The notes below the pieces were generated by a model. That model did not search any database. It was not told the origin of the DNA and was given only the letters and a program-made list of their open reading frames with translations. Both the position numbers and the translations under genes were made by a program. Source: Candidatus Limnocylindrales bacterium (GTDB taxonomy: Bacteria; Chloroflexota; Limnocylindria; Limnocylindrales; CSP1-4). Taken from it: a stretch of DNA of 64,000 bases. Of the stretch, positions 19,219 through 64,000 are shown in pieces (within the stretch, counting starts at the first letter, position 1; each line of letters opens with the position of its first letter). Location: contig DATFHO010000101.1 of assembly GCA_035248345.1 (NCBI GenBank), forward strand, positions 80,407-144,406. The letters are read 5' to 3'.

Positions 19219-21578
19219 CGGACTTCGGCGCGATCAAGGTTCGCGGGGCGCGGGAGAACAACCTCCGCAGCGTCGACCTCGACATCCCGAAGCGGGAGCT
19301 GACGGTCTTCACCGGCGTCTCCGGCTCCGGGAAGAGCTCACTGGTGTTCGGGACGATCGCCGCCGAATCGCAGCGGCTCATCAACGAGACATACAGCGCG
19401 TTCGTACAGGGCTTCATGCCGACGCTCGCACGGCCGGACGTTGACTCGCTGGAGGGCCTGACGACCGCGATCATCCTCGACCAGGAGCGGATGGGCGCCA
19501 ACGTCCGATCCACGGTCGGCACGGTGACCGACGCCAACGCGATCCTGCGCGTCGTCTTCAGCCGCATCGCCCAGCCGCAGATCGGCGGCCCGCAGGCGTA
19601 CTCGTTCAACATCCCGTCCGTCAGTGGGGCCGGCGCGGTCAAGTTCCAGAAGGGCGGCCAGACCGTCACGGAGCGGAAGACCTTCTCCATCGCCGGCGGC
19701 ATGTGCCCCCGCTGCGAGGGGATGGGTACGGCGAAGGACATCGACACCACCCAGCTCTATGACGCATCGAAGACGCTCTCGACCGGTGCGATCACCATCC
19801 CCGGCTTCGCGGCCGAGGGCTGGCTGGTCCAGATCCTCGAGAAGACCGGCTTCTTCGACATGACGAAGCCGATCCGTGACTTCAACAAGGCGGAGCTGGA
19901 CCACCTGCTGTACCAGCAGCCGATGAAGGTCAAGGTGAACGGCGTCAACCTGACCTACCAGGGCCTGGTGCCGCGGATCCAGCAGTCGATGCTGTCGAAG
20001 GACGTCGAGGCGCTCCAGCCCCACATCCGGGCGTTCGTGGAGCGGATCGCGACGTTCACGCCGTGTCCGGAATGCGGCGGGACGCGGCTGTCCGAAGCGG
20101 CGCGCACATCCCGCATCGAGGGCGTCAGCATCGCGGACGCGTGTGCGATGCAGATCAGCGACCTCGCCGAGTGGGTCCGCGGGCTCCAGCAACCGTCCGT
20201 TGCACCGCTGCGCGCCGCGCTCGGCGAGACCCTGGATGCGTTCGTCGAGATGGGCCTCGGCTACCTGAGCCTGGACCGGGCCTCCGGCACGCTCTCCGGC
20301 GGCGAGGCACAGCGCACGCGGATGGTCCGACACGTTGGATCGCCGCTCACGGACGTCACCTACGTCTTCGACGAGCCGACGATCGGGCTCCACGCCCACG
20401 ACGTCGAGAAGATGAACGCGCTCCTCCGGCGCCTTCGTGACAAGGGCAACACGGTCCTCGTCGTCGAGCACGATCCGGAGGTGATCCGCATCGCGGACCA
20501 CGTCGTGGACATGGGGCCGGGTGCGGGTCCGCATGGCGGAACCGTGGTGTTCGAGGGAAGCGTGGACGGCCTCGCAGGCGCCGACACCGCCACCGGCCGG
20601 CACCTCGACCAGCAGGTCTCCCTCAAGCCGACCGTGCGCACGTCCTCGGCCTCGATCGCGATCCGGCACGCGGCGCTGCACAATCTCCAGGATGTCTCCG
20701 TGGACGTCCCGCTCGGGGTCATGGTGGCGATCACCGGCGTCGCCGGGTCCGGCAAGAGCTCGCTCATCCACGGCTGCCTGCCGCGCGAAACCCCGTCGGT
20801 GACCGTCATCGACCAATCGGCGATCAAGGGCTCGCGGCGGTCCAGCCCCGCCACCTACACCGGGATCCTCGATCCCATCCGCACCGCGTTCGCCAAGGCC
20901 AACGGCGTGAAGCCGGCGCTGTTCAGCGCGAACTCCGAGGGCGCGTGCCCGGCCTGCAACGGGCTCGGCAAGATCTACACGAGCCTCGGGTTCATGGCGG
21001 AGGTGGCCAGCGTGTGCGAGGTGTGCGAGGGCCGCCGCTTCACCGATGAAGTGCTCGAGTACCGGCTGCGCGGGAAGAACATCGTCGAGGTCCTCGCGAT
21101 GCCGGTGGAGGAGGCGGCGGCGTTCTTCACCGAGACGCCGGTGAAGACGATGCTCGACCGGTTGGCCGATGTCGGGCTCGGGTACGTCTCGCTCGGGCAG
21201 GAGCTCGACACGCTCTCCGGTGGCGAGCGCCAGCGGCTCAAGCTCGCGATCGAGATGTCGTCCGACACCGAGGTCTATGTCCTCGACGAGCCGACGACCG
21301 GCCTGCACATGCGGGACGTGGACAACCTCGTGGGCCTGCTGGATCGCCTCGTCGAGAGCCGCCGCACCGTCATCGTCATCGAGCACAACCTCGACGTCGT
21401 GGCGCACGCGGACTGGGTCATCGACATGGGCCCCGGTGCCGGCCACGATGGCGGCCGGGTGGTGTTCGAAGGGCCGCCATCGGCCCTGGTCGATGCGCCG
21501 GGCTCGCTGACCGGTGAGCACCTCCGGCGGCGCCTCGAGCCCGTTCGCGCTGCGTCTGGAGCCGCCGCGCACGCCTGA
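19206..21578 (+). CDS. uvrA2: Class II UvrA-like excinuclease ABC ATPase (UvrA2; no UvrB-binding domain)
   Basis: 790 aa. Two ABC modules: Walker A GVSGSGKSSL and GVAGSGKSSL; signatures LSGGEAQR and LSGGERQR. Zn-finger pairs CPRCEGMG, CPECGGTR, CPACNGLG and CEVCEG. Too short for a class I UvrA of ~950 aa. Confidence 0.85.
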   Translation: MADVTDFGAIKVRGARENNLRSVDLDIPKRELTVFTGVSGSGKSSLVFGTIAAESQRLINETYSAFVQGFMPTLARPDVDSLEGLTTAIILDQERMGANVRSTVGTVTDANAILRVVFSRIAQPQIGGPQAYSFNIPSVSGAGAVKFQKGGQTVTERKTFSIAGGMCPRCEGMGTAKDIDTTQLYDASKTLSTGAITIPGFAAEGWLVQILEKTGFFDMTKPIRDFNKAELDHLLYQQPMKVKVNGVNLTYQGLVPRIQQSMLSKDVEALQPHIRAFVERIATFTPCPECGGTRLSEAARTSRIEGVSIADACAMQISDLAEWVRGLQQPSVAPLRAALGETLDAFVEMGLGYLSLDRASGTLSGGEAQRTRMVRHVGSPLTDVTYVFDEPTIGLHAHDVEKMNALLRRLRDKGNTVLVVEHDPEVIRIADHVVDMGPGAGPHGGTVVFEGSVDGLAGADTATGRHLDQQVSLKPTVRTSSASIAIRHAALHNLQDVSVDVPLGVMVAITGVAGSGKSSLIHGCLPRETPSVTVIDQSAIKGSRRSSPATYTGILDPIRTAFAKANGVKPALFSANSEGACPACNGLGKIYTSLGFMAEVASVCEVCEGRRFTDEVLEYRLRGKNIVEVLAMPVEEAAAFFTETPVKTMLDRLADVGLGYVSLGQELDTLSGGERQRLKLAIEMSSDTEVYVLDEPTTGLHMRDVDNLVGLLDRLVESRRTVIVIEHNLDVVAHADWVIDMGPGAGHDGGRVVFEGPPSALVDAPGSLTGEHLRRRLEPVRAASGAAAHA

Positions 21579-27926: not shown

Positions 27927-28760
27927 TCAGGCGTGGAGCTGGGCCTTCTCCTCGTCGGTGAGCTTCGTGGGCGGCTTGCCGAGGATGATCATCCCGAGCA
28001 CTTCGTCCGTGGTGACGTCGTCCTTGTTCACCGTGCCGACGAGCCGGCCGTGGTACATGACCGAGATCCGCTCGGACAGGTCGAACACGTCGTGGATGTC
28101 GTGGCTGACGAGGAAGATCCCGAGCCCTTCCTTCTTGAGCTGGCGGATGAGATCCCGGACCTGCGCCGTCTCGGCCGGCCCGAGGGCAGCCGTGGGCTCG
28201 TCCATGATCAGGACCCTCGCGTTGAACTGGATCGCCCGCCCGATCGCGACAGCCTGGCGCTGGCCGCCGGACAGGCGCATGACCGGGCTGGTGAAGTTCT
28301 TGAAGTTCGGGTTGAGCCGCCCGATGACCTTGCGCGTCGCGTCCTCCATCGCGTCGTCATCGAGCTGGCCGCGGCTCATCACCTCGCGCCCCAGGAACAC
28401 GTTCGCCGGGGCATCGAGGTTGTCCGCGAGGGCGAGGGTCTGGTAGATCGTCTCGATGCCGTACGCCTTCGCGTCGCGTGGGTTGGCGATGCTCGCGGGC
28501 TTGCCGTCGACCCAGATCTCGCCTCGGTCGGGGGGCCGCGCGCCGGACAGCGCGCGCATGAGCGTGGACTTGCCGGCGCCGTTCCCGCCGACGAGGCCGA
28601 TCACCTCGCCGGGGTGGACGTCGACGCTGACGCCCTGGACGGCCTTGACGCCACCGAAGCTCACCTCGATGTTGCGCATCTCGATCAGGGGCGTCCGTGC
28701 GGCGGCCGGTGCGGCGGCCGGCGCCGTGGCGGCATTCGTCGTGGGTTGGGACAGTGCCAT
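27927..28760 (-). CDS. Sugar ABC transporter ATP-binding protein, single NBD (half-size, xylG-like position)
   Basis: 277 aa from [10 protein letters not shown] (ATG 28760). Walker [10 protein letters not shown], signature LSGGQRQ, Walker [12 protein letters not shown]-loop. Only one nucleotide-binding domain. Confidence 0.8.
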
Positions 28761-31489: not shown

Positions 31490-32728
31490 TCATGCGCCGG
31501 CCGCGGTGGCGAGCTGTGCCCGGGGTCCGAGCCAGCCTGCTGGGTCGGCGACGAACGGCTCAAGTGCGAGCTCGGCCGCGCCGACGAGCGGAGCGTCGAT
31601 CCCGAGTGCGGCCGGAGCGACGCGGACCAGCCCACGCGGTCCCTTGAGCGCCATCCGGCCCAGCTCTCGATCGAGCGCCCGATCGATGAACGGATACGCC
31701 CGGGCGAACAGGCCGCCCAGGACGATCACGCGAGGATTGAGGAGGTTGACCAGTCCGGCGAGGCCGATGCCGAGCCAGCGACCGATCTCGTCGAAGGCGG
31801 TGCGGGCCTGCGGGTCACCGGCCGCGGCGGCGGCGAGGACGCGGTCGACCTCGTCGGGGCCGCCGTCGCCGGCGCGGCCCACGAGCCGCAGCAGCGCCTG
31901 CTCGCCGACCTCGGTCTCCCAGCAGCCGATGGAGCCGCAGTGGCAGGCCCGGCCGTTGGGGTTCACCGGCATGTGCCCGACCTCGCCCGCGAATCCGGCA
32001 ACGCCGGTGAGGGGCTGGCCGTCGATGATGATCCCGCCGCCGACGCCGACCTCGCCCGAGATGAACAGGAGGTCGTCTGCGCCCCGTGCGGCACCGCGGC
32101 GGAGCTCCGCCATCGCGCCGAGATCTGCTTCGTTCGCGACGAACACCGGCCGCTGCGTCCCGATCGCGACCGCGATTCGCTCGGCCAGCGGAACGTCGCG
32201 CCAGCCCAGGTTCGGGGCCATCAGCACGATCCCGTCCTGGCGACGCACCAGCCCGGCGACCGCGACCCCCACGGCGATGGGCGCCTCGCGCTCCGCGGGA
32301 GGAAGGAGCCGGTCCGTCAGGCCCGCCAGGTCCGCAACGATCGTGTCCACCGAGAGGTGCTCACGTGGCCGCGCGATGCTCGCCTGGGCGATGATCTCGC
32401 CGCCCAGCCCGACGAGGGCCGCCGCCAGCGAATCGACGCGGATCTCGAGCGCCAGCACGAAGACGTCGCGCGACCTCGGCCGGACGCGGGGCGAGGGTCG
32501 GCCCGGAGCGCCATCGGGCGCCCCGCGCTCCTCGACGAGGATGCCGCCCGCGACGAGCTCCCCGATCAGCGCCCGGATCGCGGTACGGGTGAGGCCTGTG
32601 CGCGCCACGAGCTCTGAGCGGGATTGGGGTCCGCGCAGGTGCAGCTCGCGCACGATCGCGGCGAGGTTGGCGCGACGCACGGTCCCGCTCCGCTGGCCGA
32701 TCGATTCCGGGAACAACAACGGCGTCAC
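31490..32728 (-). CDS. xylR: ROK-family transcriptional regulator (XylR-like)
   Basis: N-terminal wHTH (VRRANLAAIVRELHLRGPQSRSELVARTGLTRTAIRALIGELV). ROK sugar-kinase-like body with the zinc motif CHCGSIGCWE. Start chosen at the GTG (VTPLLF); the Pro-rich upstream extension was rejected. Confidence 0.75.
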   Translation of the reverse strand: MTPLLFPESIGQRSGTVRRANLAAIVRELHLRGPQSRSELVARTGLTRTAIRALIGELVAGGILVEERGAPDGAPGRPSPRVRPRSRDVFVLALEIRVDSLAAALVGLGGEIIAQASIARPREHLSVDTIVADLAGLTDRLLPPAEREAPIAVGVAVAGLVRRQDGIVLMAPNLGWRDVPLAERIAVAIGTQRPVFVANEADLGAMAELRRGAARGADDLLFISGEVGVGGGIIIDGQPLTGVAGFAGEVGHMPVNPNGRACHCGSIGCWETEVGEQALLRLVGRAGDGGPDEVDRVLAAAAAGDPQARTAFDEIGRWLGIGLAGLVNLLNPRVIVLGGLFARAYPFIDRALDRELGRMALKGPRGLVRVAPAALGIDAPLVGAAELALEPFVADPAGWLGPRAQLATAAGA

Positions 32729-52413: not shown

Positions 52414-53679
52414 TCAGGCTCGGTTCGCGCCGCCGCTGGGGGCCCGGCTCCGGAGCGCGTAGCTCGCGCTTGCGTGGAGCGACTTGCGGGTCATCTCCGG
52501 CATCGGGGCACTCCAGCGGGCATCCTCGGCCTTCAGCTCCGCGACCAGCCCCTGGAGCACCGGGTCGTTGCCGGCGTAGGCCGCGATCCGTTCCGCGACG
52601 GCACGGACTCCGCCGGCGGCGCGCTTGAGATCACCGTGCCGGTTGAGCTGCACCGCATCCTGGCGAGCCCGCGCTGCGAACAGCTTCGCGACGGCCCGAT
52701 CGACGACCCGGTCGCGAGCCTGCCCGTCGTTCGTCCGGTCGTCCGCGAACTCCCAACCGACTGCCGCCGGCTGCGGCATCGACGCCGCGAGCGCACCGTC
52801 GCGGTCAACGGCCGCGACGAGCAGCCCGACATCCTGGCCCACCGGCCCGTAGCCGAACTTCACCCGCAGCACGACCTCCAGGCGCTGCTCGGCAACGAGG
52901 TCTCCGACGAGCACCTGGAGCCGGTTGCCGCGCCGCTCGAGCGGGTACGGTGACAGCGTCGAGATGGCGACGCTCTCCGGCGCCGTGATCTCGAGGACAG
53001 CCTCGCGCGCGACCACCTGGAGCAGCTCCCCCACCTCGGTCGCGATGTGGTCCGGGATCTGGGCGGCGTTCTCGATGAAGTAGAAGTGGCCGCCACCGGC
53101 GTCCGCCATCGACTGCAGCAGCGCTTCGTCGAAGTCCGCGCCGACTCCGAACGTCGTCGTCGTCACGCCGCGTGCCCGCAGCTCACGGGCGTGCCGCGCG
53201 AGTTCCTGCGGGTCGACGATGCCCACGTTCGCAAGCCCGTCGGTCAGGACGAGCGTGCGGTTCACGCCGGTGGGCGCCATCGACAGGGCAACCTGTTCGG
53301 CGCCGCGCAGCCAGCCACCGGCAAGGTCGGTCGAGCCGCGCGCGTCGATCGCGCGAAGGCGGTCGATGGCGTTCGTCTTCGCCTCGCGGGAGGCAGGCGT
53401 TGCCTCCACGACGACGTCGATCCGGTCGTCGTAGCAGACGATGGCGAACCGGTCCTGCGGCAGCAGCCGGTCAACCGCGGTCTCGATCGCCTGCTTGGCG
53501 AGGGCCAGCTTGTCGCCGGACATCGAGCCCGATCGATCGAGCACGAAGGCGAGGTTCACGGGGTCGCGCTGCGTCTGTCGTGGCGCCGGGGGGGCCTCGA
53601 GCTCGACGAGCACGAACCGCTCGCTGCGGTGGGCCGAACGGACATAGCGGCGATCCGATCGCGCGCGAAGGTTGGTCAT
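52414..53679 (-). CDS. von Willebrand factor type A (VWA) domain protein, cytoplasmic
   Basis: Intact MIDAS (VLDRSGSMSG = DxSxS, plus downstream T and D). No signal peptide. GGAGG lies 8 nt upstream. The ATG overlaps the MerR stop (ATGA). Confidence 0.7.
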   Translation of the reverse strand: MTNLRARSDRRYVRSAHRSERFVLVELEAPPAPRQTQRDPVNLAFVLDRSGSMSGDKLALAKQAIETAVDRLLPQDRFAIVCYDDRIDVVVEATPASREAKTNAIDRLRAIDARGSTDLAGGWLRGAEQVALSMAPTGVNRTLVLTDGLANVGIVDPQELARHARELRARGVTTTTFGVGADFDEALLQSMADAGGGHFYFIENAAQIPDHIATEVGELLQVVAREAVLEITAPESVAISTLSPYPLERRGNRLQVLVGDLVAEQRLEVVLRVKFGYGPVGQDVGLLVAAVDRDGALAASMPQPAAVGWEFADDRTNDGQARDRVVDRAVAKLFAARARQDAVQLNRHGDLKRAAGGVRAVAERIAAYAGNDPVLQGLVAELKAEDARWSAPMPEMTRKSLHASASYALRSRAPSGGANRA

Positions 53680-54398
53680 GGCTGTTCCTCCTTGAGGACC
53701 TGGCGGGCGATCGTGATGAGGCGCTCGACCCGTTTCTGCTCGAGCCGGCCGAGCGGCCGGCGGACGTGGAGCTCGAGATTGGGCCCGAGCGAGAGGCGCT
53801 CCCACTGGGAGCGTTCGATGGATGGGGACGTGGCCGCCTGGGGGGCGGCCTGGGCGGCGGCCAGAGCGGCTGCCGCCACCGGTGGCGCCGCGGGCAGATC
53901 CGGGTCCGCCGCGGCTGTACTAAGTCGCGTCGTGAACGGCAGGTCGATCCGGCGAAGGGACCGCCCGACGACCGGCGCGTCGCGCATGGCCGGCATTGCG
54001 GGCGGCGGCATTGCCTGCGCCGGAGCGGCCACCGGCGGGACCGGCGACGGCTGCGGTGGCACCGGCGTCCGGTTCGAGCCGGCAATGACCGATCGCACGT
54101 AGTCGAGCGCCGACGTCGCGGGCTCGGTGACCACGTCCGATGCCGCCGCGAGCGACGTGGCCTCGTCATCTCGCAGCGACGCGAGGCGCGCCCGAATCTC
54201 GGCGAGCGGCAGGTGCTGTTGCTGCAGGCGACGCACGAGGCGCAGCCTGGCGAGGTGGCCCTCCCCGTAGTGCGCGCCGGGCCCGGATTCTCCGGATGCC
54301 GGGATCAGCCCCTGGGCGAGGTAATAGCGGATCGTGCGGACACTGAGGCCGGTAAGCCCCGCGAGGTCGCTGATCGTGTAAGATGCGTCATTTGCCAC
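53676..54398 (-). CDS. MerR-family transcriptional regulator with long Pro/Ala-rich C-terminal region
   Basis: N-terminal MerR HTH YTISDLAGLTGLSVRTIRYYLAQGLI, a coiled-coil, then a PPQPSPVPPVAAPAQAMPPPAMPAM linker and a C-terminal domain. Confidence 0.7.
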   Translation of the reverse strand: MANDASYTISDLAGLTGLSVRTIRYYLAQGLIPASGESGPGAHYGEGHLARLRLVRRLQQQHLPLAEIRARLASLRDDEATSLAAASDVVTEPATSALDYVRSVIAGSNRTPVPPQPSPVPPVAAPAQAMPPPAMPAMRDAPVVGRSLRRIDLPFTTRLSTAAADPDLPAAPPVAAAALAAAQAAPQAATSPSIERSQWERLSLGPNLELHVRRPLGRLEQKRVERLITIARQVLKEEQP

Positions 54399-54454
54399 CG
54401 CATAAATATACAGTCGACAGTCCGACTGTCAAGACCGTCAGCAGGGCGGCGCCG

Positions 54455-55405
54455 TCAGGAGCGCCCGTCCACCATCGGGACCACCTCGCCGATCCAGCGC
54501 TCGATCGTCTCCTCGTCGTACGGTGCCGCGAGCTCCGCGAGGAAGGTGTGGAAGCCCAACGAGGTGACCTCGTCCATCTTCTCGGCAATGAGCTCCGGGG
54601 TCCCGACCCAGAACGTGTCGTCATCGAGGACGTCGGACATCGGCGTGCGGTTGTTCGCCATCTGCGCCTCCCAGACGCGCCGCGCCTCCTCGACGGTGTT
54701 GCGGATGATCGGCTTGCAGCCGCCGGTGAACTCGATGTCGGCGATGCGCCGGCCGACCTCGTCGCAGTGCCGCTGGAGGATCTCGATCTTGCGCTGCAGG
54801 AACTCCCGAGTGCCCATCGCGTTCCACATGTCCGCGTGGCGCGCCACGGACCGGAGCGTCTTCTTCTCCCCGGAGCCGCCGATCATGATCGGGAGCCGCG
54901 GCTGGACGGGCGCCGGAAGGAGGGCGAAGTCGTCGAGCTGGTAGTGCGCGCCGGGCGGCGACGTGTACCGCTTCCCTGCGAACAGCGTCTCGAGCGCGTC
55001 GGCCGTCTCCTCCATCCAGTCGAGGCGTTCGCCGAAGCCCGACCCGAAGTCGATGCCCGCGGCCTGGTGCTCGAGCTCCATCCACGCGCCGCCGATGCCC
55101 GCGATCGCGCGCCCGCCGCTCGCGTGGTCGATCGTCGTGAGCATCTTCGCGACGACGGCGGGATTGCGGAAGGTGTTCGCGCCGACGAGCAGCCCGAGTC
55201 GAACCCGCTTCGTCATGCCCGCCCACGCGGCAAGGCTCGTGTAGCCCTCGAAGATCGGCTGGTACGGGTCGCCGAAGATCGCGTACAGGTGGTCCCAGGC
55301 GAGGAGGTAGTCGTAGCCGAGCTCGTCGATGCGGCGCGCCGCCTTCTCGTAGGCGGCCCAGTCGCTGGCCTGGTTCCAGAGCAGGATGCCGAGCTTGGTG
55401 GTCAC
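54455..55405 (-). CDS. LLM-class (luciferase-like) flavin/F420-dependent oxidoreductase
   Basis: TIM-barrel LLM pattern (LGYDYLLAWDHL, ...GANTFRNPAVVAKM...). GTG start overlaps the MFS stop (GTGA). Confidence 0.7.
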   Translation of the reverse strand: MTTKLGILLWNQASDWAAYEKAARRIDELGYDYLLAWDHLYAIFGDPYQPIFEGYTSLAAWAGMTKRVRLGLLVGANTFRNPAVVAKMLTTIDHASGGRAIAGIGGAWMELEHQAAGIDFGSGFGERLDWMEETADALETLFAGKRYTSPPGAHYQLDDFALLPAPVQPRLPIMIGGSGEKKTLRSVARHADMWNAMGTREFLQRKIEILQRHCDEVGRRIADIEFTGGCKPIIRNTVEEARRVWEAQMANNRTPMSDVLDDDTFWVGTPELIAEKMDEVTSLGFHTFLAELAAPYDEETIERWIGEVVPMVDGRS

Positions 55406-56607
55406 GTGGTCGTCTCCGAAGCTGGTATAGGTGCTCGACTGTACCGGGCGGGACCGCTCGATCTCACCGCGAAGGCGACGATGAGCATTGCACCCACGCC
55501 GAGGCCGGCAGCAAGGGCGAACAGCCCCTGGAGTCCCGCGAGCGCGGCGATCGCGCCGCCGCCGGCGGCGGCCGTAACCTGGGCGAGGCTGCTCCCCACG
55601 CCCTGGAAGATCCCCTGGGCGGTGGCGGCGAGCTCGGGTGGCACGTGGGTGGACACGTAGACGACGCCCGCAACGAGGAACAGCGCGTACCCGAAGCCCG
55701 CGAACACCGAGGCCGCGAGGAGCAGCTCCGGGCTCGTCGCGAGCGCCGCCACGATCGAGCGCGCCATCAGGAAGAACGCGCCGGCGATGAGCAGGCGATT
55801 CGCACCCACCCGTGTCGCGAGGAGCGGGAACAACAGCATGAGCGGCACCTCGATCCCCGCCGCGATCGCGCCGCCCAGGCCGATGATCGTCGCCCCGGCG
55901 TGGAGCTCATCGAACCGGAGTGGCGTGAAGCTGAGCACGAGCTGCATGCCGAGCCAGGCAAGGAACGACCCGAGCACGAACACGCCGAGCCCTCGCGGCC
56001 CGAAGAGCCGTCCGGCATCGCGGAGCGGGCTGCCGTAGCGGCGGGCGCTCGCGGCCGGCGGGCGGAGCGTCAGGCCGATCGCGGCGGTGGCCACGAAGAA
56101 GATGGCCTGCACGATCAGCAGGGAGCGCGGGCTCGTGGCCTGGACGAGCGCGCCCGTCGCCAGCGCCGAGATGACATAGCCCACGGAGCCCCAGGCGCGC
56201 AGCGGGCCGTAGCCGTTCCGAGCGGCGCCCGCGGTCTCGAGCGCGCGGGCATCGATGATCGGCAGCGTGCCCGCGATGCCGCAGCCCAGCAGCCCGGCTC
56301 CGATCGGCACCGCGAAGCCCGTGGAGCCCAGCAGGCCGGGCCCGAACGCGAGCAACGCCGTTCCGGCGAGCGATGTCCCAACCGCCGCAACGAGCACGTA
56401 CGGCGAGCCTCGCCGCCGATCCGACAGCGAGCCCCATACGGGCGCGGACACCAGGCCCACGAACGACGCGATGGCGAGCAGGCCGCCGATCTCGCCCAGC
56501 TGGAAGCCCAGCTCGCGGTAGTACAGGGTGAGGTACGGGACCCACGCACCGGCGGCCGCGAAGAATGCGGCATACGCCAGGGCAGCGCGGACCTTCGGCG
56601 GAATCAC
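55402..56607 (-). CDS. MFS transporter
   Basis: About 12 TM segments (my estimate). GTG start chosen at VIPPKVRAALAY; the Arg/Cys-rich upstream extension was rejected. Confidence 0.65.
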   Translation of the reverse strand: MIPPKVRAALAYAAFFAAAGAWVPYLTLYYRELGFQLGEIGGLLAIASFVGLVSAPVWGSLSDRRRGSPYVLVAAVGTSLAGTALLAFGPGLLGSTGFAVPIGAGLLGCGIAGTLPIIDARALETAGAARNGYGPLRAWGSVGYVISALATGALVQATSPRSLLIVQAIFFVATAAIGLTLRPPAASARRYGSPLRDAGRLFGPRGLGVFVLGSFLAWLGMQLVLSFTPLRFDELHAGATIIGLGGAIAAGIEVPLMLLFPLLATRVGANRLLIAGAFFLMARSIVAALATSPELLLAASVFAGFGYALFLVAGVVYVSTHVPPELAATAQGIFQGVGSSLAQVTAAAGGGAIAALAGLQGLFALAAGLGVGAMLIVAFAVRSSGPARYSRAPIPASETTT

Positions 56608-56668
56608 GAGGTCCGAATCATCGCAGCAGGCGCCGTGATGCCCTGCGCCGGATCCGACGGGCGATGGT

Positions 56669-57967
56669 TCAGCCCGGATCCCGCGGGAAGAACCTGGGCA
56701 GATGGCCGCGATTGGCCTCGAGCAGAGCGGGCAGCAGCGGCTCTGCGATGGACCACCGGGCGACGAGCGGGTTCGCGAGCAGTGCCTGCATCGCGATGCC
56801 CCGATCCCCGGAGCGGGCGGCCGCCACCGCAAGCTCCTCGTACGCCTTCATCGACTGGACGAGGCCGCGCATGCCCGGCTGGAGCGCTTCCTGGGGCATG
56901 ATCTCGGCGCCGTCGCGCGTGATGCGCGCGGGCACTTCGACGACCGCGTGGTCGGGCAGCTCCGGGAGGGCGCGGGCGCCCGTCCCGTCACCGTTGCGGA
57001 TGTCGACGACCTGGACATCGCCCCGCCCATCGTGGAGCGACGCGATCAGCTGCGCGGCCGCCTCGGAGTAGAAGGCGCCGCCGCGGCGCTCGAGGAGCTT
57101 CGGCTTCTCGTCGAGATTGGGGTTCCGGTACATGTCGAGGAGCTCGCCTTCGATGTCCATGACCTGCGATGCGCGCGTCTCGGCGCCCTCGAGCTGGTCG
57201 TGGAGCACCTTGTCGAAGGCGTAGTAGTACTTGAGGTAGTAGCTCGGGATCGAGCGCGTGAGCCGGATCAGGTCCGCGGACGTGCCGACGTCCTGCGCCA
57301 GCGCATCGGCATGCAGCTCGAGGATGTTCGGCAGGCGGTCCTCACCGTCGACCTTGACCGAGCGGATCCACGACAGGTGGTTGAGCCCGACGTGGCCCAG
57401 CTCCACCCGCTCGGGCTCGACGTGGTTTCGCTCCGCGAACCGCCGCTGGAACCCGATCGCCACGTTGCACAGCCCGATCGCGCGGTGGCCGTCGTCGAGC
57501 AGGGCCTGGGTGACGATGCCGACCGGGTTCGTGAAATCCACGATCCAGGCGCCGGGCGCCGCGCGGCGGGCCGTCCGCTCCGCGATGTCGAGCACGACCG
57601 GCACCGTGCGGAGCGCCTTGGCGAACCCGCCTGCGCCCGTTGTCTCCTGGCCGATCGTGCCGAACTTCGGCGGCAGCGTCTCGTCGACGAGGCGTGCGGC
57701 CTGCCCGCCAACGCGGAGCTGGATGAGCACGAAGCTCGCGCCGTCGATGGCGGCGTCGGTGTCACTGGTCAGCGTCAGCCGGCCGGGCCAGCCGAGGCGC
57801 CGGAGCATCCGGCTCGCGAGTCCACCGACGATCTCGAGCCGCTCGGGGTCGATATCGAGGAGGACGAGCTCGTCGACCGGAAGTCGATCCGAGCGCCGTG
57901 CGATCCCTTCGATCAGCTCAGGCGTGTACGTGCTGCCGCCGCCGACCACCGCGAGCTTCACGCCCAA
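56669..57967 (-). CDS. Glycoside hydrolase family 4 (6-phospho-glucosidase, CelF/ChbF-like)
   Basis: N-terminal NAD Rossmann KLAVVGGGSTYTPEL, FTNPVGIVTQAL, and GLCNVAIG with the catalytic Cys. TTG start at 57967; GTG at 57961 is an alternative. Confidence 0.8.
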   Translation of the reverse strand: MGVKLAVVGGGSTYTPELIEGIARRSDRLPVDELVLLDIDPERLEIVGGLASRMLRRLGWPGRLTLTSDTDAAIDGASFVLIQLRVGGQAARLVDETLPPKFGTIGQETTGAGGFAKALRTVPVVLDIAERTARRAAPGAWIVDFTNPVGIVTQALLDDGHRAIGLCNVAIGFQRRFAERNHVEPERVELGHVGLNHLSWIRSVKVDGEDRLPNILELHADALAQDVGTSADLIRLTRSIPSYYLKYYYAFDKVLHDQLEGAETRASQVMDIEGELLDMYRNPNLDEKPKLLERRGGAFYSEAAAQLIASLHDGRGDVQVVDIRNGDGTGARALPELPDHAVVEVPARITRDGAEIMPQEALQPGMRGLVQSMKAYEELAVAAARSGDRGIAMQALLANPLVARWSIAEPLLPALLEANRGHLPRFFPRDPG

Positions 57968-58067
57968 TCGCCGCCTCGCTTTCCCGTCTTGACATCGGGT
58001 CGATTGCTTATAACGTTATCAACTCTCGCGCGGGAAACAAGGGGCTACTGGAGGAGACCGGCGACCC

Positions 58068-58853
58068 GTGGCGCGCTACCGGCTGGAGCTGGGTCCTGTT
58101 CCGCTGCACCACCAGGTCTACCTCGACCTGCGCGCGGCGATGGACTCGGGTGAGCACCCGGTCGGCGACCGGCTGCCTCCCGAGCGCGAGCTCGCGCGCC
58201 GCTACGGCTGCAGCCTGATCACGGTCCGCCGCGCGCTCGACGAGCTGTCACGCGAGGGCCGGCTCCAGCGCCACCAGGGCCGCGGCACGTTCGTGCTCCC
58301 GCCCCGGCTGGATCGCGACATCGGCGCGGCGCTCTCCTTCACCGACGAGATGCAGCGGCGTGGCCTCGATCCGGAGACGCGGCTCGTCGCGGCGCGTCCC
58401 GAAGCCGCGGTGGAGTCCGTAGCCGCCGCGCTGGCGCTGGAGATCGGCTCCCCCACGCTGTACCTCGAACGGCTCCGCCTCGCCGGCGGCGAGCCTCTGC
58501 TGCTCGAGATGGTCCACCTGCCTGCGGAGCGGTTCCCGGGCCTGCTGGCCAGCGACCTCGAGCACGACTCGCTCTACGACGTCCTCACCGAGCGGTACGG
58601 AACGCCGGTGGTTCGCGCCCGGGAGGCGCTCGAGCCGGTGCTCCTCCCGGCCCGCGAAGCACGCCTCCTCGGGCTCGAACCGCGGAGTCTCGCGCTGCTC
58701 GTGGAGGGCGTCGCATTCACCCGGGATGACACACCCGTCGAGTTCGGGCGGACGTTCGTCCGTGGGGATCGGACTCGGTATTACGTCGAACGGGTCCACG
58801 TCCGGTCCGGCATGAGCCGGGTCCGGGAAGCAGGGCCGGCGCTCGCCGGCTGA
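58068..58853 (+). CDS. GntR/HutC-family transcriptional regulator (wHTH + UTRA effector domain)
   Basis: GntR HTH (LPPERELARRYGCSLITVRRALDELSREGRL) and a UTRA-like C-terminal domain. DasR/NagR-type architecture. Confidence 0.8.
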   Translation: MARYRLELGPVPLHHQVYLDLRAAMDSGEHPVGDRLPPERELARRYGCSLITVRRALDELSREGRLQRHQGRGTFVLPPRLDRDIGAALSFTDEMQRRGLDPETRLVAARPEAAVESVAAALALEIGSPTLYLERLRLAGGEPLLLEMVHLPAERFPGLLASDLEHDSLYDVLTERYGTPVVRAREALEPVLLPAREARLLGLEPRSLALLVEGVAFTRDDTPVEFGRTFVRGDRTRYYVERVHVRSGMSRVREAGPALAG

Positions 58854-58869
58854 TCGAGAGGAGGCGCTC

Positions 58870-60327
58870 GTGCACTCGAGATCCCGCATCACGGGGCTGC
58901 TGGCGACGATGGCGATCGTCGCCTCGGCTTGCAGTGGCAACACTGCGTCACCCGCTGCGACGGGCAGCGGCGCGACCCAGCCCGCGGCGACGACCGCCGC
59001 GACCCAGGCGGCGGAAGCCACGCTCACGCCGTTCTCGTTCCCGCCTGCGGACCTGCGCTGGTACTGCTGCCTCGGCACGGGTCAGGACGCGACGCAGGTG
59101 CCGGTCGAGAACCAGGTCGCCGCCGACTTCTCCAAGAAGGCGCCGGGCAGCACCCTCAAGTTCGAGGCGGTGACGTACGACCAGGCGCGCGACACGCTGT
59201 CGACGCAGCTCGGCGGCGGGAACGCACCGGACATCGTCGGCCCGAACGGCTTCGGCGGGTTCAACGCCTTCGAAGGCCAGTGGCTCGACCTCGCGCCGTA
59301 CATCGCGAAGTCGAACTACGACCTGACCCAGTTCGACCAGTCGACCGTGGACTTCTACAAGTCGGCGGATGGCCAGATCGGCATCCCGTTCGACGTCTAC
59401 CCCTCGGTCCTTTGGTACAAGAAGGACATGTTCACGGAGGCCGGCCTCGCCGAGCCCCCGCACAAGTACGGCGACAAGTACACGATGCCGGACGGCTCCC
59501 AGGTCGAGTGGAACTACGACACGCTCAAGCAGATCGCGCTCATCCTGACCGTCGACAAGAACGGCAAGGACGCGACCCAGGCAGGGTTCGACCCCAAGAA
59601 CGTCGTCCAGTACGGCTTCGAGCCGCAGCGCGATGACCTTCGCGGGCTGGCGGCCTACTGGGCGCCGGGCAGCCTCGTCGGCTCCGACGGCAAGACGGTC
59701 ACGATCCCCGACGCCTGGAAGGTGGCGTGGAAGTACTTCTACGACGGCATGTGGACCGACCACTTCATCATGACCGACGCGGTCTTCCAGTCCGACAAGT
59801 TCGGAGGCGGTGAGTACGCGTTCTTCTCGGGCAACGTGGCCATGAGCGAGAACTTCCTCTGGACCACGTACGGCGTCGCAAATGCAGGCACCGATTGGGA
59901 CCTCGCTGCGATCCCGGCCTACAACGGCGTCGCGACCGCCCCGCTCAATGCGGATTCGTTCGCGATCCCGAAGCACTCGAAGAACCCGGACACGGCGTTC
60001 GCGGCGCTCACGTACCTGCTGGGCGATGCGTCGGACACGCTGCTCAACATCTATGGCGGCATGCCCGCCCGACCCGACAAGCAGGACGCCTTCCTGGCGC
60101 AGCTCGGCAAGTCCGAGGGCTTCCCGGCCAAGGTGGACTGGCAGGTCGCGAAGGACAGCCTGTCGCACGCGGACATCCCGAACTTCGAGTCCCCGATGCC
60201 GCAGTACAACAAGACCCTCGACATCCTGATCAAGTACCGGACCAAGTGGACGACCACGCCGGGCCTGAACATGGACGCCGAGTTCGATGCCATGGCGGCG
60301 GAGATCCAGGCAGCCTGGAACAGCTGA
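58870..60327 (+). CDS. ABC transporter substrate-binding lipoprotein (solute-binding family 1, oligosaccharide type)
   Basis: Lipobox IVASACSGN. SBP_bac_1 pattern. GAGAGGAGG RBS 7 nt upstream of the GTG. Confidence 0.8.
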   Translation: MHSRSRITGLLATMAIVASACSGNTASPAATGSGATQPAATTAATQAAEATLTPFSFPPADLRWYCCLGTGQDATQVPVENQVAADFSKKAPGSTLKFEAVTYDQARDTLSTQLGGGNAPDIVGPNGFGGFNAFEGQWLDLAPYIAKSNYDLTQFDQSTVDFYKSADGQIGIPFDVYPSVLWYKKDMFTEAGLAEPPHKYGDKYTMPDGSQVEWNYDTLKQIALILTVDKNGKDATQAGFDPKNVVQYGFEPQRDDLRGLAAYWAPGSLVGSDGKTVTIPDAWKVAWKYFYDGMWTDHFIMTDAVFQSDKFGGGEYAFFSGNVAMSENFLWTTYGVANAGTDWDLAAIPAYNGVATAPLNADSFAIPKHSKNPDTAFAALTYLLGDASDTLLNIYGGMPARPDKQDAFLAQLGKSEGFPAKVDWQVAKDSLSHADIPNFESPMPQYNKTLDILIKYRTKWTTTPGLNMDAEFDAMAAEIQAAWNS

Positions 60328-60454
60328 CCTGACCTCGCTCCTCCTCGCAGCGGGCGGCCCGCGATGACCTCGGGGCCGCCCGCTCGCTTCCTTCCTCGCT
60401 TTCCTTTTCGCCCGCTCCCCGCCCACCGCACCGACTGAACACAGGAGCCGACGG

Positions 60455-61447
60455 TTGGACCACGTCCCGGCGATGCTCGGTCCCAGCGCCACCACTGCCG
60501 TCCGGCCGGCCCGCACTCGGCGATTCGGCCGGCCGCATTGGCCGAAGCTGTCGCCGCTCGCACGTCGCGAGGCGCGGCTCGGCTACCTCTACATCTCGCC
60601 CTGGATCATCGGGTTCGTCGCCTTCACGGCGCTGCCGATGCTGGCGACGTTCGGCTTCACCTTCCTCAACCTCACGCTGGCGCAGAAGGAGCCGCTGCAG
60701 TTCGTCGGGCTCGACAACTACGCCCGCCTGGCGAAGGACGGCCAGGTCTGGGAATCGCTGTCGGTCACGTTGCGGTTCGCGCTCCTGTGGCTGCCCATCT
60801 CGATCATCGTCCCGTTCCTGGTCGCGCTCGGCCTCAACAGCAAGCTGCTGAAGGGCGCCGCGATCATGCGGAGCCTGTTCTTCCTGCCGTACGTCGTGCC
60901 CTTCGTGGCCGGCGTGCTGGTCTGGGAGCAGATGCTGTCAGATAGCGGCTGGCTGAACGGCGTCCTCCGGCTCGTCGGCATCTCCGACCCCCCGTCCTGG
61001 CTGTTCAGCCAGACGTTCATCTACCCGGCCCTGGTCGCGATCGGGATCTGGGGCATCGGCGCCGGGATCGTGATCAATCTCGCCGGCCTGCGCGGCATCC
61101 CGACGGAGCTCTACGAGGCCGCCCGGATCGATGGCGCGGGCGCGTGGGCCCAGCTGCGGAACGTGACGATCCCGATGATGTCGCCGATTCTCTTCTACAC
61201 GCTGATCCTCGGCGTCGTCGATGTCCTCCAGTACTTCCTCGTGCCGCTGGTCCTCAAGAACGGGACCGGCGAGCCGGGTGGGCAGACGCTCTTCTACAAC
61301 CTCTACCTCTACAAGACGTTCTTCACGTACCAGGAGCTGTCGTACGGGGCGACGCTCGCCTGGCTCCTGTTCGCGATCACGCTCGTGATCACGCTGCTGC
61401 TCTTCGCGCTCAGCCGGCGCTGGGTCTACTACGCGGGCGAGCGATGA
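60455..61447 (+). CDS. Carbohydrate ABC transporter permease (MalF/UgpA-type)
   Basis: EAA loop region (AARIDGAGAWAQLRNVTIP), 6 TM. TTG start with AGGAG 8 nt upstream; an internal ATG lies at 60473. Confidence 0.8.
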   Translation: MDHVPAMLGPSATTAVRPARTRRFGRPHWPKLSPLARREARLGYLYISPWIIGFVAFTALPMLATFGFTFLNLTLAQKEPLQFVGLDNYARLAKDGQVWESLSVTLRFALLWLPISIIVPFLVALGLNSKLLKGAAIMRSLFFLPYVVPFVAGVLVWEQMLSDSGWLNGVLRLVGISDPPSWLFSQTFIYPALVAIGIWGIGAGIVINLAGLRGIPTELYEAARIDGAGAWAQLRNVTIPMMSPILFYTLILGVVDVLQYFLVPLVLKNGTGEPGGQTLFYNLYLYKTFFTYQELSYGATLAWLLFAITLVITLLLFALSRRWVYYAGER

Positions 61448-62538
61448 GCGCCGGGAGCGTCATGCGCGAAAGCGCCGGCTCGACCCCACCGCGGCGGAAC
61501 CGCGTGCGCCGGTCGGCTGCGGAATGGACGCGGATGGGCGTCCTCACGTCCCTGTTCGTGGCCATCCTCATCGCGTTCCTCTCCCCGCTCGCCTACAGCT
61601 TCATCGTCTCCCTCAAGACGCCGGACCAGATCACCGCGCCGAACGCGCCGATCCTCCCGTCCGACCCTGCGACGTACGACTACAACGGCAAGACGGTCAA
61701 TGTCTACAACGTCCCGATGCCCGACGGCTCGATCCGCCAGCTGGCGATCATCAAGCCCGGCCGGACGCAAAGCGACTTCATCGATCCCGCGAACCCCAGC
61801 GCGCCGCCGATCACATGGCAGGGCTCGTGGCGCACGCTGACGCAGCCGTGGCAGGTGGCGCCCCACCCGGAGAACTACTCGACGGTCTGGGACCTCATCA
61901 ACTTCCCCCTGCTGCTGCGGAACACGATCCTGCTGTCGGCGATCGGGACGTTCGGGACGGTGCTGTCGTGCACGCTCGTCGCGTACGGCTTCGCCCGCTT
62001 CCGCTTTCCGGGCCGGGGCCTGCTGTTCACCATCCTCCTCGCGACGATCTTCCTGCCGGGGGCGGTCACCCTCATCCCGACATACGCGATCTTCAACAAG
62101 ATCGGCTGGGTCGGCACGTGGCTGCCGTTGCTCGTGCCCACGTTCTTCGCGAACGCCTACGACGTCTTCCTGTTGCGCCAGTACCTCATGACGATCCCGC
62201 GCGACCTCGACGAGGCCGCGGCGATCGACGGCGCGGGCTCGTTCCGGATCCTCCGGTCGGTCATCCTGCCGCAGGCGTGGCCGGTGCTGGTCGCGGTGTT
62301 CATCTTCAGCTTCGTGTACTCGTGGAACGATTTCTTCGGGCCGCTCATCTACCTCGCCGGGCATGCGGATCTCGTGCCGCTGCAGGTTGGACTGGCGTCG
62401 TTCCATGGCATCTACTACACGAACCCGGCCTACATCCAGGCCGGCAACCTCATGACGCTGCTCATCCCGGTGCTCCTGTTCGTGATCTTCCAGCGCGTCT
62501 TCATCCGCGGCGTCGTGATCACCGGCGTCGAGAAATAG
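61444..62538 (+). CDS. Carbohydrate ABC transporter permease (MalG/UgpE-type)
   Basis: EAA loop AAAIDGAGSFRILRSVILP. ATGA overlap with the preceding permease. Confidence 0.8.
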   Translation: MSAGSVMRESAGSTPPRRNRVRRSAAEWTRMGVLTSLFVAILIAFLSPLAYSFIVSLKTPDQITAPNAPILPSDPATYDYNGKTVNVYNVPMPDGSIRQLAIIKPGRTQSDFIDPANPSAPPITWQGSWRTLTQPWQVAPHPENYSTVWDLINFPLLLRNTILLSAIGTFGTVLSCTLVAYGFARFRFPGRGLLFTILLATIFLPGAVTLIPTYAIFNKIGWVGTWLPLLVPTFFANAYDVFLLRQYLMTIPRDLDEAAAIDGAGSFRILRSVILPQAWPVLVAVFIFSFVYSWNDFFGPLIYLAGHADLVPLQVGLASFHGIYYTNPAYIQAGNLMTLLIPVLLFVIFQRVFIRGVVITGVEK

Positions 62539-62554
62539 GCGTAGGGTCGACGCC

Positions 62555-63211
62555 GTGACAGCCGCCGACTCCCCCTTCCGCGTCGCCCTGACCTTCGATG
62601 CCGAGCATCCGGACCGGCCGGCGCGGCTCGGCAACGACGCGCGGCTGCTCAACGCGCTGCAGCATGCCGACGTGCGGGCCACGGTCTTCATCCAGGGCCG
62701 CTGGGCCGAGGCGCACCCCGAGGTCGCGCGGCGCGTCGCGACGGACGGCCACCTCGTGGGCCACCACTCGCACTACCACGTCCGGATGATCGGCCTGAGC
62801 GCGCACGGGCTGCAGAGCGACATCGCCCGCGGCGAGGAAGCCATCCTCGAGGCGACCGGGGTCGATCCGCATCCGTGGTTCCGCTGCCCGTTCGGCTCCG
62901 GAGACAACGATCCCCGGGTGCAGCGCGCCATCCGCTGGGCCGGCTACCGGCACGTGGGCTGGAACGTCGCCGGCATCGACTGGGAGTCCGATCGAACGGC
63001 CCGCGATGTGGAGAACACGGTCGTCGACGCGTCGGTCGCGCACGGGGACGGCGCGGTCGTCCTGCTCCACAGCTGGCCGGACCAGTCCGTCGGCGCGGTG
63101 GCGGGGATCGTGCGGCGGCTTCGCGCACGCGGCGCCACCTTCGTGACCGTCGACGAGCTCCCGGTTCGATCCGTCCCCCGGCGGGACGTCTCGGTCGGCA
63201 TCGAGGCGTGA
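62555..63211 (+). CDS. Polysaccharide deacetylase (NodB-homology, CE4) family protein
   Basis: ALTFDAEHPDR (the metal-binding Asp motif region) and HSHYH (His-His). GTG start. Confidence 0.7.
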   Translation: MTAADSPFRVALTFDAEHPDRPARLGNDARLLNALQHADVRATVFIQGRWAEAHPEVARRVATDGHLVGHHSHYHVRMIGLSAHGLQSDIARGEEAILEATGVDPHPWFRCPFGSGDNDPRVQRAIRWAGYRHVGWNVAGIDWESDRTARDVENTVVDASVAHGDGAVVLLHSWPDQSVGAVAGIVRRLRARGATFVTVDELPVRSVPRRDVSVGIEA

Positions 63212-64000
63212 CGACCGCCGCGGTCCTCGCCGTCGACGGCGGCAACTCCAAGGCCGACGTTGCCCTCGTTGCCGCCGACGGAACGCTCCTCGCCGCGATC
63301 CACGGCCCCTCGATCTCCCATCAGGCTGTCGGGCTCGAGGCCGGGATGGCGAACCTGCTCGGGATCGCGAGGCAGGCAGCCGTGGCCGCCGGGTTTCCGG
63401 CGGACCAGCCGCCCTTCGCCGAGGCGGGCATGTACTGCCTCGCCGGCGCGGACTATCCCGAGGACGTCCACCTCCTGGCGCGATCCATCGGGGCGCTCGG
63501 ACTGACCGCGCAGCTCGACGTCCGGAACGACACGCTCGGTGCGCTGCGTGCCGGCACGCACCGGCCGTGGGGCGTGGCGCTGATCTGCGGCCGCGGCGTG
63601 AACGGCGCCGGTGTGGCGCCGGGCGGTCGCACGATCCGGTTCGACGGCGTCGGGACGTACAGCGGCGACTGGGGCGGTGGCGGCGGCATCGGGCTGGCAG
63701 CCATCGCCGCCGCGGTTCGGAGCCGGGACGGGCGCGGCCCGTGGACCCGCCTCGAGGCCAGCGTGCCCGCCTTCTTCGGCGTCGCCTCGCCGCCGGAGCT
63801 GACGAAGGGCCTGTACCTCCAGCAGCTCTCGGAGCATCGGATCACGGAGCTCGCGCCACTCGTGTTCCAGGCGGCTGCGGACGGTGACGAGGTCGCGCGC
63901 GGGATCCTCGACCGCCTCGCGGACGAGCTCATCGCCATGGCGGGCGCGCTCGTTCGCCGGCTCGGGCTGGAGCTGCTGGAGCCAGAGGTCGTGCTCGCCG
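63208..64000 (+). CDS. BadF/BadG/BcrA/BcrD-type ATPase (N-acetylglucosamine-kinase-like), 3'-truncated by the window edge
   Basis: LAVDGGNSKADVAL is the ASKHA N-terminal phosphate loop. GTG start overlaps the deacetylase stop (GTGA). The ORF is still open at 64000. Confidence 0.65.
   Translation, partial: MTTAAVLAVDGGNSKADVALVAADGTLLAAIHGPSISHQAVGLEAGMANLLGIARQAAVAAGFPADQPPFAEAGMYCLAGADYPEDVHLLARSIGALGLTAQLDVRNDTLGALRAGTHRPWGVALICGRGVNGAGVAPGGRTIRFDGVGTYSGDWGGGGGIGLAAIAAAVRSRDGRGPWTRLEASVPAFFGVASPPELTKGLYLQQLSEHRITELAPLVFQAAADGDEVARGILDRLADELIAMAGALVRRLGLELLEPEVVLA

Follow-up and report, generated by a model that had tools for sequence, protein, structure and literature searches.

How might a bacterium supply a phospho-dependent enzyme of glycoside hydrolase family 4 (GH4) with its substrate when the neighboring genes encode an ATP-binding cassette (ABC) importer rather than a phosphotransferase system (PTS)? 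The question is raised by a locus at one end of a 64,000-nucleotide stretch of DNA from Candidatus Limnocylindrales bacterium (Chloroflexota; contig DATFHO010000101.1, positions 80,407 to 144,406), hereafter called the window. In this locus, a GH4 gene stands divergent from genes for a GntR/HutC-family regulator, a solute-binding protein, two permeases, a carbohydrate esterase family 4 (CE4) deacetylase and a BadF-family sugar kinase, and neither Pfam nor the gene calls on the contig reveal a PTS gene among the cluster genes. We consider it very probable that the locus represents a variant, in Chloroflexota, of the csn-type GH4-kinase cluster. It is moderately probable, in our judgment, that it encodes a repressor-controlled pathway for beta-1,4-linked disaccharides or short oligomers of glucosamine (GlcN) or N-acetylglucosamine (GlcNAc) that originate from chitin or chitosan, in which the kinase would act before the hydrolase.

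Gene families were assigned from a listing of open reading frames, from Pfam at gathering scores and from an NCBIfam scan. An exact match to the CE4 protein led to the source contig, a 78-kb metagenome contig (ENA ERZ27257121 k141_1794950), whose public gene calls give the same genes. All nine proteins named in a preliminary description of the window, seven of them listed above and two that are taken up further below, are present, and each passes its Pfam gathering score.

We first consider the GH4 enzyme. Its gene (56669..57967, minus strand) encodes 432 amino acids from a TTG start, while the public call has 430 amino acids from 57961, and the N- and C-terminal domains of the family both score far above their cut-offs (PF02056, 158.8 bits; PF11975, 157.5 bits). 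Among proteins in the PDB, two Geobacillus 6-phospho-beta-glucosidases (entries 5C3M and 1S6Y) score highest, one with 346 bits (E = 1e-102) and the other with 340 bits (E = 1e-100). Thermotoga BglT matches at 234 bits (E = 1e-68), the 6-phospho-alpha-glucosidases at 125 to 138 bits and the AglA-type alpha-glucosidases at 46 to 56 bits (E = 1e-11 to 1e-14). The protein is also 35 to 37% identical to ChbF of Escherichia coli. We aligned eight enzymes, namely the window protein, ChbF, the Geobacillus enzyme, BglT, three actinobacterial relatives and the non-phospho alpha-galactosidase MelA. The dinucleotide-binding motif G9-G-G-S12, C167 and H197 are invariant in all eight, and C167 and H197 align with the Mn ligands Cys162 and His192 of BglT, which have been named as its metal ligands (PMC10755693). 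Residues R85, R92, N168 and R295-G-G are common to the window enzyme, ChbF, the Geobacillus enzyme and BglT, whereas MelA differs at each of these positions.

Cys-Asn-(Val/Ile)-Pro is the active-site motif of the 6-phospho-beta-glucosidase branch of GH4. The window enzyme has C167-N168-V169 but carries Ala in place of Pro (CNVA), where the solved enzymes have CNVP and MelA has C-H-S. The same CNVA is found in all 21 close relatives and in the actinobacterial csnH-type enzymes. Taken together, the PDB scores, the Cys and His ligands for Mn and the Arg and Asn positions that distinguish phospho-enzymes from MelA bear out the earlier suggestion that this enzyme is of the phospho-type. It does not group with the non-phospho alpha-glucosidases or galactosidases and, judged by its sequence, it is a member of the 6-phospho-beta-glucosidase branch, not of the AglA or MelA type. 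Characterised enzymes of this branch require a 6-phospho substrate, and such a requirement is reported for GlvA and BglT (PMC10628242).

Close homologues of the GH4 enzyme (80 to 93% identity) all come from soil metagenomes and from metagenome-assembled genomes of Chloroflexota or Candidatus Limnocylindria, and by its nearest homologues the host is itself a Limnocylindria-like member of Chloroflexota and no actinobacterium. The window enzyme and its closest relatives also share a five-residue insertion, D-G-T-G-A, at about residues 326 to 330 (window 56980-56994); the enzymes from E. coli, Geobacillus, Thermotoga and actinobacteria lack it.

If the hydrolase depends on a phosphorylated sugar, then its genomic partners should be informative. 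A scan with the GH4 alignment, taking one genome per species, gave 80 loci, onto which the window proteins were mapped by tblastn and in which all genes were called with a codon-usage caller and clustered. Relative to the public calls on the source contig of the window (L001), this caller missed one gene, for an ECF sigma factor, and shifted some starts. It also missed some regulator and kinase genes, and counts were cross-checked by tblastn. Complete loci, taken as those in which GH4 is flanked by 7 kb or more on each side, number 53. By tblastn, all of them, in Chloroflexota and Actinomycetota alike, have a BadF-kinase homologue no farther than 10 kb from GH4. The GH4-kinase pair is the invariant core of these loci, and the transporter and the regulator are interchangeable.

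Four architectures are built around this core. In the type to which the window belongs, found in about 30 Chloroflexota genomes, genes for the kinase, CE4, the two permeases, the binding protein and the HutC regulator form one group divergent from GH4. A second type, in Streptomyces, Angustibacter and Actinoallomurus, has the order ROK, binding protein, permease, permease, GH4, kinase. A third, in other Actinomycetota, combines a ROK gene and an Opp-type (SBP_bac_5) ABC system with two ATPases, followed by GH4 and kinase, and a fourth, in Acidimicrobiia, consists of a divergent kinase/GH4 pair only. The CE4 gene is present in 23 and the HutC regulator in 27 of the 53 complete loci. The preliminary description had regarded a GH4 enzyme beside an ABC system as unusual. 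This view finds no support, given the kinase beside GH4 throughout two phyla and a published Streptomyces cluster of the same architecture; the combination of GH4, ABC importer and kinase is neither rare nor new.

That published cluster is csnREFGHK (SCO2657-2662) of S. lividans, S. coelicolor and many other actinomycetes, which encodes the ROK repressor CsnR, the ABC system CsnEFG, the GH4 enzyme CsnH and the putative saccharide kinase CsnK (PMC6097792; PMC6520443; PMC5635096; bioRxiv 2023.09.20.558697). It is involved in the uptake of chitosan-derived glucosamine oligosaccharides (PMC6097792; bioRxiv 2023.09.20.558697). A locus of Streptomyces cellulosae in our set (L081) has the csnREFGHK make-up by Pfam, with a kinase of the BadF/BcrAD family that gives no ROK match. 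Relative to this locus, the window proteins are 63% (GH4), 43% (kinase), 35% (permease 1, csnF position) and 41% (permease 2, csnG position) identical. The window binding protein matches its csnE-position counterpart at 23% over 247 residues (E = 1e-5), and gene clustering sets them apart, in c5 and c11. L081 matches the published architecture but need not be the exact orthologue of SCO2657-2662: the partial motif Q-x2-RE-x2-AA reported for SCO2662 (PMC6520443) was not found in the L081 kinase, and a guessed CsnR-box pattern has no match upstream of the L081 ROK gene. We also observe that CsnK has been called a ROK-family kinase (bioRxiv 2023.09.20.558697), whereas the kinase in the csnK position of L081 (11277-12329) is BadF/BcrAD by Pfam.

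What the window locus shares with csnREFGHK is a CUT1-type ABC importer lacking its own ATPase, a GH4 enzyme and a sugar kinase in a single repressor-controlled cluster. The two differ in several respects. CsnR is a ROK protein, whereas the window regulator is of the GntR/HutC type with its own 24-bp palindrome; CsnE is not orthologous to the window binding protein; and GH4 sits between permease and kinase in csnREFGHK but is divergent in the window. Furthermore, csnREFGHK has no CE4 gene, which the window type adds, and its hosts are Actinomycetota rather than Chloroflexota. The novel elements are the host phylum, control by a HutC regulator, a binding protein that is not orthologous, the divergent arrangement of the genes and the added CE4 enzyme.

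The second member of the core, the BadF/BcrAD-family (ASKHA) sugar kinase, begins at 63208 on the plus strand and is cut off by the window end at 64000. On the contig it is full length at 336 amino acids, and its end would be at window coordinate 64218. Its GTGA start overlaps the CE4 stop by 4 bp. PF01869 is matched at 72.6 bits, and residues 9 to 15 form a phosphate-binding motif of the DGGxxK type (V-D-G-G-N-S-K). The best solved relative is MurK, a kinase for N-acetylmuramic acid (MurNAc) and GlcNAc (E = 1e-24 over 303 aligned residues). Because its score against the NagK_SO3507 equivalog, 55 bits, is far below the cut-off of 370 bits, the protein is not a NagK orthologue.

The order in which these two enzymes act bears most directly on our opening question. 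A phospho-type GH4, the lack of a PTS gene in the cluster, the invariant linkage of GH4 and kinase, and an extra ROK kinase in variant loci all argue that the kinase would act before the hydrolase. The last point comes from two loci (L014 and L019) in which a ROK-family kinase follows GH4 in addition to the BadF kinase, an arrangement that fits one kinase for the disaccharide and another for the released monosaccharide. There is a precedent for such an order in the route of BglK and Thermotoga maritima BglT, in which a beta-glycoside is phosphorylated with ATP, no PTS being involved, and is then cleaved by GH4. BglK is a ROK-family kinase, whereas the window kinase is BadF/BcrAD and has a context that points to amino sugars. 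In vitro, the 6-phosphates made by BglK serve as BglT substrates (PMC10628242).

An alternative is that GH4 hydrolyses the unphosphorylated amino-disaccharide and that the BadF kinase then phosphorylates the GlcN or GlcNAc monomers, which is how the roles of CsnH and CsnK have been worded for Streptomyces. The nearest solved or curated relatives of the kinase, MurK and NagK_SO3507, are indeed monosaccharide kinases. However, the GH4 enzyme falls among enzymes that depend strictly on a 6-phospho group and retains the residues by which they differ from MelA, its linkage to the kinase in 53 of 53 loci is tighter than one would anticipate for a generic hexosamine kinase, and some loci add a separate ROK kinase. 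We therefore regard this reversed order as unlikely.

The CE4 gene (62555..63211, plus strand) raises the question of which sugar is being processed. Its product matches Polysacc_deac_1 at 85.9 bits and has the CE4 motifs H-S-H-Y-H, R-C-P-F and L-L-H. The first motif, canonically TFDDG, reads TFD-AEHP-D-R here, so that four inserted residues part its two Asp residues (residues 15 to 22, window 62597-62620), and (L/M)T(F/I/L)DxEHPD is conserved among the CE4 orthologues whose N-terminus was called. No signal peptide is present, and in about 30 genomes the gene is flanked by permease 2 on one side and by the kinase on the other. Because it lacks a signal peptide and has kept this position, we take the protein, as its sequence and setting suggest, to be a member of a catabolic operon and not a cell-wall enzyme. 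The preliminary description had allowed that it might be a peptidoglycan-type CE4 unrelated to sugar catabolism, which sits poorly with a cytoplasmic protein embedded in this operon.

Nevertheless, the locus as a whole might be imagined to recycle peptidoglycan, with GlcNAc-MurNAc-type disaccharides as substrates, a MurK-like kinase and a peptidoglycan-type CE4. MurK is, after all, the best solved relative of the kinase, and the top NCBIfam matches of the CE4 protein are the peptidoglycan deacetylase families PdaB, PgdA and PdaA, all far below their cut-offs. This explanation is very improbable, in that no MurQ etherase is encoded in or near any locus and a sugar isomerase (SIS) domain protein found at some loci is much closer to NagB-II and GlmS, with E = 1e-64 to 1e-65, than to MurQ, with E = 1e-7 to 1e-8. 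Moreover, peptidoglycan deacetylases act outside the membrane, whereas the CE4 protein is predicted to be cytoplasmic, and the homologous Streptomyces system responds to chitosan oligomers (PMC6097792).

A more natural role for the CE4 enzyme is suggested by the chbBCARFG system of E. coli, in which a GH4 enzyme of the same branch, ChbF, is likewise paired with a cytoplasmic deacetylase. ChbF cleaves glucosamine-6P-glycosides only, and diacetylchitobiose-6P is first mono-deacetylated by ChbG (PMC12791066; PMC9402603). Deacetylation must precede cleavage in that system, and the products are glucosamine-6-phosphate (GlcN-6-P) and GlcNAc. The dependence of ChbF on a deacetylated substrate provides a rationale for a cytoplasmic deacetylase beside a ChbF-type GH4, and the proposal that deacetylation comes before GH4 action, already made for this locus, is in line with the published roles of ChbG and ChbF. 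The systems differ in that uptake and phosphorylation in E. coli are performed by the PTS ChbBCA, whereas the window would use an ABC importer and an ATP-dependent kinase; in that ChbG is a YdjC-family protein, to which the non-homologous CE4 enzyme is a possible functional analogue; and in that ChbR is of the AraC type and the window regulator of the HutC type.

The product expected from such a pathway also finds support in the neighborhood. In 14 loci a tandem-SIS protein gene lies inside or beside the cluster, and nine of these are of the window type, with the gene directly after GH4. The best NCBIfam match of this protein is NagB-II glucosamine-6-phosphate deaminase (E = 7e-65; 220 bits, below the 430-bit cut-off), and it also matches the GlmS isomerase domain. 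This NagB-II-like neighbor points to GlcN-6-P as the product. From this gene, the csn homology, the DasR/NagR-like regulator, the UspC-like binding protein and the ChbF/ChbG precedent, we infer an amino-sugar substrate.

Perhaps, instead, the locus handles a sugar that carries no amino group, such as an O-acetylated beta-glucoside or cello-, xylo- or manno-oligosaccharides, with CE4 serving as an acetyl esterase and the core as a cellobiose-kinase/6-phospho-beta-glucosidase pair. The GH4 protein is publicly annotated as a 6-phospho-beta-glucosidase, and its nearest solved relatives are described as phospho-beta-glucoside enzymes. The CE4 matches include the acetylxylan esterase 2CC0 and the "xylanase/chitin deacetylase" 7Y51, and a kinase plus GH4 route for beta-glucosides is chemically precedented by the BglK-made substrates of BglT (PMC10628242). 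We find this rather improbable in light of the NagB-II/GlmS-isomerase-like gene in or beside the cluster in 14 loci, the homology to a cluster for chitosan oligosaccharides, the regulator closest to DasR and NagR and the binding protein closest to the amino-sugar protein UspC, and a DegT-type sugar aminotransferase gene that adjoins GH4 in five loci.

The five loci with this last gene, of the DegT/DnrJ/EryC1 type, are actinobacterial (L015, L023, L030, L037 and L040). Among other variants, the two loci with an extra ROK kinase (L014, 108-10616; L019, 371-11745) are of the HutC type without CE4, and have a csnE-like binding protein and a NagB-II-like SIS gene. Both also encode a clan-A glycosidase of 660 to 690 amino acids with weak GH5, GH35 and GH42 matches.

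How the sugar might enter the cell is indicated by three genes on the plus strand. The first (58870..60327; Pfam SBP_bac_1) encodes the solute-binding protein of a CUT1-type ABC importer, a lipoprotein whose N-terminus has a signal peptide and the lipobox VASAC. Its best solved relative is UspC, a weak match (E = 1e-10), and UspC is described as specific for amino sugars (PMC4929945). Permease 1 (MalF/UgpA-like; 60455..61447) and permease 2 (MalG/UgpE-like; 61444..62538), whose genes overlap by 4 bp, both match BPD_transp_1. No ABC ATPase gene occurs in the cluster of the window or of the approximately 30 syntenic relatives, and because it is likewise absent from these relatives, its absence is real and not an artefact of assembly. 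The earlier suggestion that the importer borrows a shared ATPase encoded in trans agrees by analogy with the published arrangement in which CsnEFG is energised by MsiK (bioRxiv 2023.09.20.558697). Elsewhere in the window, at 21171-21503 (plus strand), 28038-28688 (minus strand) and 31559-31888 (minus strand), there are weak tblastn matches to an ABC ATPase (27 to 33% identity) and to a ROK protein (33%).

Directly 3' of the binding-protein gene lies a GC-rich hairpin with a perfect 12-bp stem (60349..60384, plus strand). Most related loci whose intergenic gap is at least 50 nucleotides have a strong hairpin of different sequence at the same site. It is probably an element that stabilises or attenuates the mRNA, as is common in ABC operons.

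The regulation of the locus was examined through the regulator and its divergent gap. The regulator gene (58068..58853, plus strand) encodes a GntR/HutC-family repressor with a winged helix-turn-helix and a UTRA effector domain (Pfam GntR and UTRA), and it is divergent from GH4 in 36 loci. Among solved proteins it is closest to two amino-sugar repressors, DasR (E = 4e-38) and NagR/YvoA (E = 1e-37), which belong to the same HutC subfamily of GntR and share both of these domains with the window protein (E about 1e-38). The gap of 100 bp between GH4 and the regulator gene contains an AT-rich 24-bp palindrome at 58003..58026, with the sequence ATTGCTTATAACGTTATCAACTCT in the window and the consensus ATTGCTGATAACGTTATAAGCAAT across loci. 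In the window and on the contig this palindrome is unique. With up to five mismatches, each of 38 loci has one single occurrence of the consensus, in every case immediately upstream of GH4 and between GH4 and the regulator gene wherever the latter was called, and in the scan of related loci it never occurs in ROK-type loci. From this strong phylogenetic footprint we predict that the HutC regulator has its operator in the palindrome.

This site differs from the one that had been anticipated. The preliminary description looked to DasR-like dre operators in the intergenic regions of the locus. The dre operator was written as A[CG]TGGTCTAGACCA[CG]T for assigning membership in the DasR regulon, and the dre-like site ASTGGTCTAGACCAST at up to three mismatches gives no match in the 64-kb window. 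On that ground the DasR-regulon reading was dropped; unlike the DasR regulon, the window lacks a dre-like site and has the conserved palindrome ATTGCTGATAACGTTATAAGCAAT. The 16-bp gap at 58854-58869, also named as a possible operator site, holds a ribosome-binding site only.

Next to the palindrome, at 57989..57994 on the plus strand, is a -35-like hexamer, TTGACA, that faces the regulator/transporter operon. This hexamer (TGTCAA in the GH4 orientation) accompanies the palindrome in most of the approximately 30 orthologous intergenic regions, and on account of this conservation we view it as part of a putative promoter of the regulator operon. A sigma-70 scan called no promoter in the GH4/regulator gap and found no consensus -10 there.

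The gene content, family assignments, synteny, operator footprint and csnREFGHK homology described above lead us to propose a complete pathway, in which we infer the substrate, the order of steps and the effector. The lipoprotein binding protein and the two permeases would import the sugar at the expense of an ATPase encoded elsewhere. In the cytoplasm, CE4 would strip the N-acetyl group from the non-reducing sugar, and the BadF-type kinase would use ATP to phosphorylate the 6-hydroxyl of that same sugar. GH4 would then split the resulting 6-phospho-beta-glycoside by an NAD+/Mn2+-dependent redox-elimination, yielding glucosamine-6-phosphate and a free hexosamine (GlcN or GlcNAc), and the former may be deaminated by a NagB-II-like enzyme encoded elsewhere in the genome. 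The HutC-family repressor would bind the single 24-bp palindrome between the divergent genes, from which a phosphorylated amino sugar presumably releases it. The biochemical logic proposed in the preliminary description stands largely as it was drawn, whereas its claims of rarity, of dre sites and of roles for two further genes do not.

Several points weigh against this model. The binding protein bears no more than a remote resemblance to CsnE and UspC, which makes it a weak guide to the imported sugar. The NagB-II-like gene of other loci is absent from the window itself, and the sole nearby chitinase-family gene, which belongs to GH18, is neither syntenic nor operator-bearing. The non-canonical first motif of CE4 means that its activity should not be assumed, and the family includes O-acetyl esterases, with the S. 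lividans enzyme 2CC0 among the top PDB matches. Finally, we found no published biochemical test of the kinase-then-GH4 order in any system, and in the Streptomyces literature the functions of CsnH and CsnK are only presumed, with hydrolysis mentioned ahead of phosphorylation (bioRxiv 2023.09.20.558697).

More specific functions can also be proposed for these enzymes, and we consider them about as likely as not. The BadF kinase could be a dedicated 6'-kinase for GlcN-GlcN(Ac) disaccharides and the CNVA-type GH4 a 6-phospho-beta-glucosaminidase, so that the pair would represent an ATP-driven, PTS-independent module that is fixed in both Chloroflexota and Actinomycetota and combined with at least three different transporters. 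The CE4 enzyme with the TFDxEHPD motif could be a cytoplasmic N-deacetylase of chitobiose, an unrelated protein in the role that ChbG plays in E. coli. We found no published biochemical tests of disaccharide 6'-kinase, 6-phospho-beta-glucosaminidase or CE4 chitobiose N-deacetylase activities of this kind.

The two further genes are accessory. An MFS transporter gene (LacY/MFS_1_like by Pfam; 55402..56607, minus strand) lies 61 bp downstream of GH4, and its 4-bp overlap with the next gene leads into a gene for an F420-type luciferase-like oxidoreductase (LLM/Bac_luciferase by Pfam and NCBIfam; 54455..55405, minus strand). The preliminary description counted both as parts of the locus and placed the locus at 56669-64000; that span does not contain these two, which sit at 54455-56607. 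An MFS homologue adjoins GH4 in only three related loci, and a close LLM homologue follows GH4 only in L003 and L039. With so few loci carrying them, and no conservation across related loci, MFS and LLM were rejected as core members.

At the other end, the gene that follows the kinase on the source contig encodes an ECF sigma factor, and the operon thus contains no further sugar genes. A GH18 gene lies a further 5.4 kb or so beyond the kinase, also on that strand (L001 17054-18403, equivalent to window 69608-70957). This gene has no operator copy and by tblastn across loci is near GH4 on this contig only. Its absence near GH4 in every other locus led us to reject it as a conserved partner. Beyond the oxidoreductase gene, a near-consensus promoter (TTGACA, 16 nucleotides, TATATT; 11 of 12 matches) at 54405-54432 (L001 1851-1878) on the minus strand overlaps an inverted repeat directly upstream of a MerR-family gene (53676-54398), beside a VWA-domain gene. 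An Rfam scan of 54000-64000 gave no match at the gathering score.

These findings overturn no current view, and we judge their importance to be moderate. They extend the csn-type pathway to abundant, uncultured soil Chloroflexota, and they identify the GH4-kinase pair, and neither the transporter nor the regulator, as the conserved core of such clusters. The kinase-first mechanism is a testable proposal for a pathway in which published work so far has only "presumed" what its two central enzymes do. The addition of CE4 suggests that a chitosan-type route may be adaptable to N-acetylated substrates derived from chitin, and the conserved operator could be used to map the regulon in genomes of Limnocylindria.

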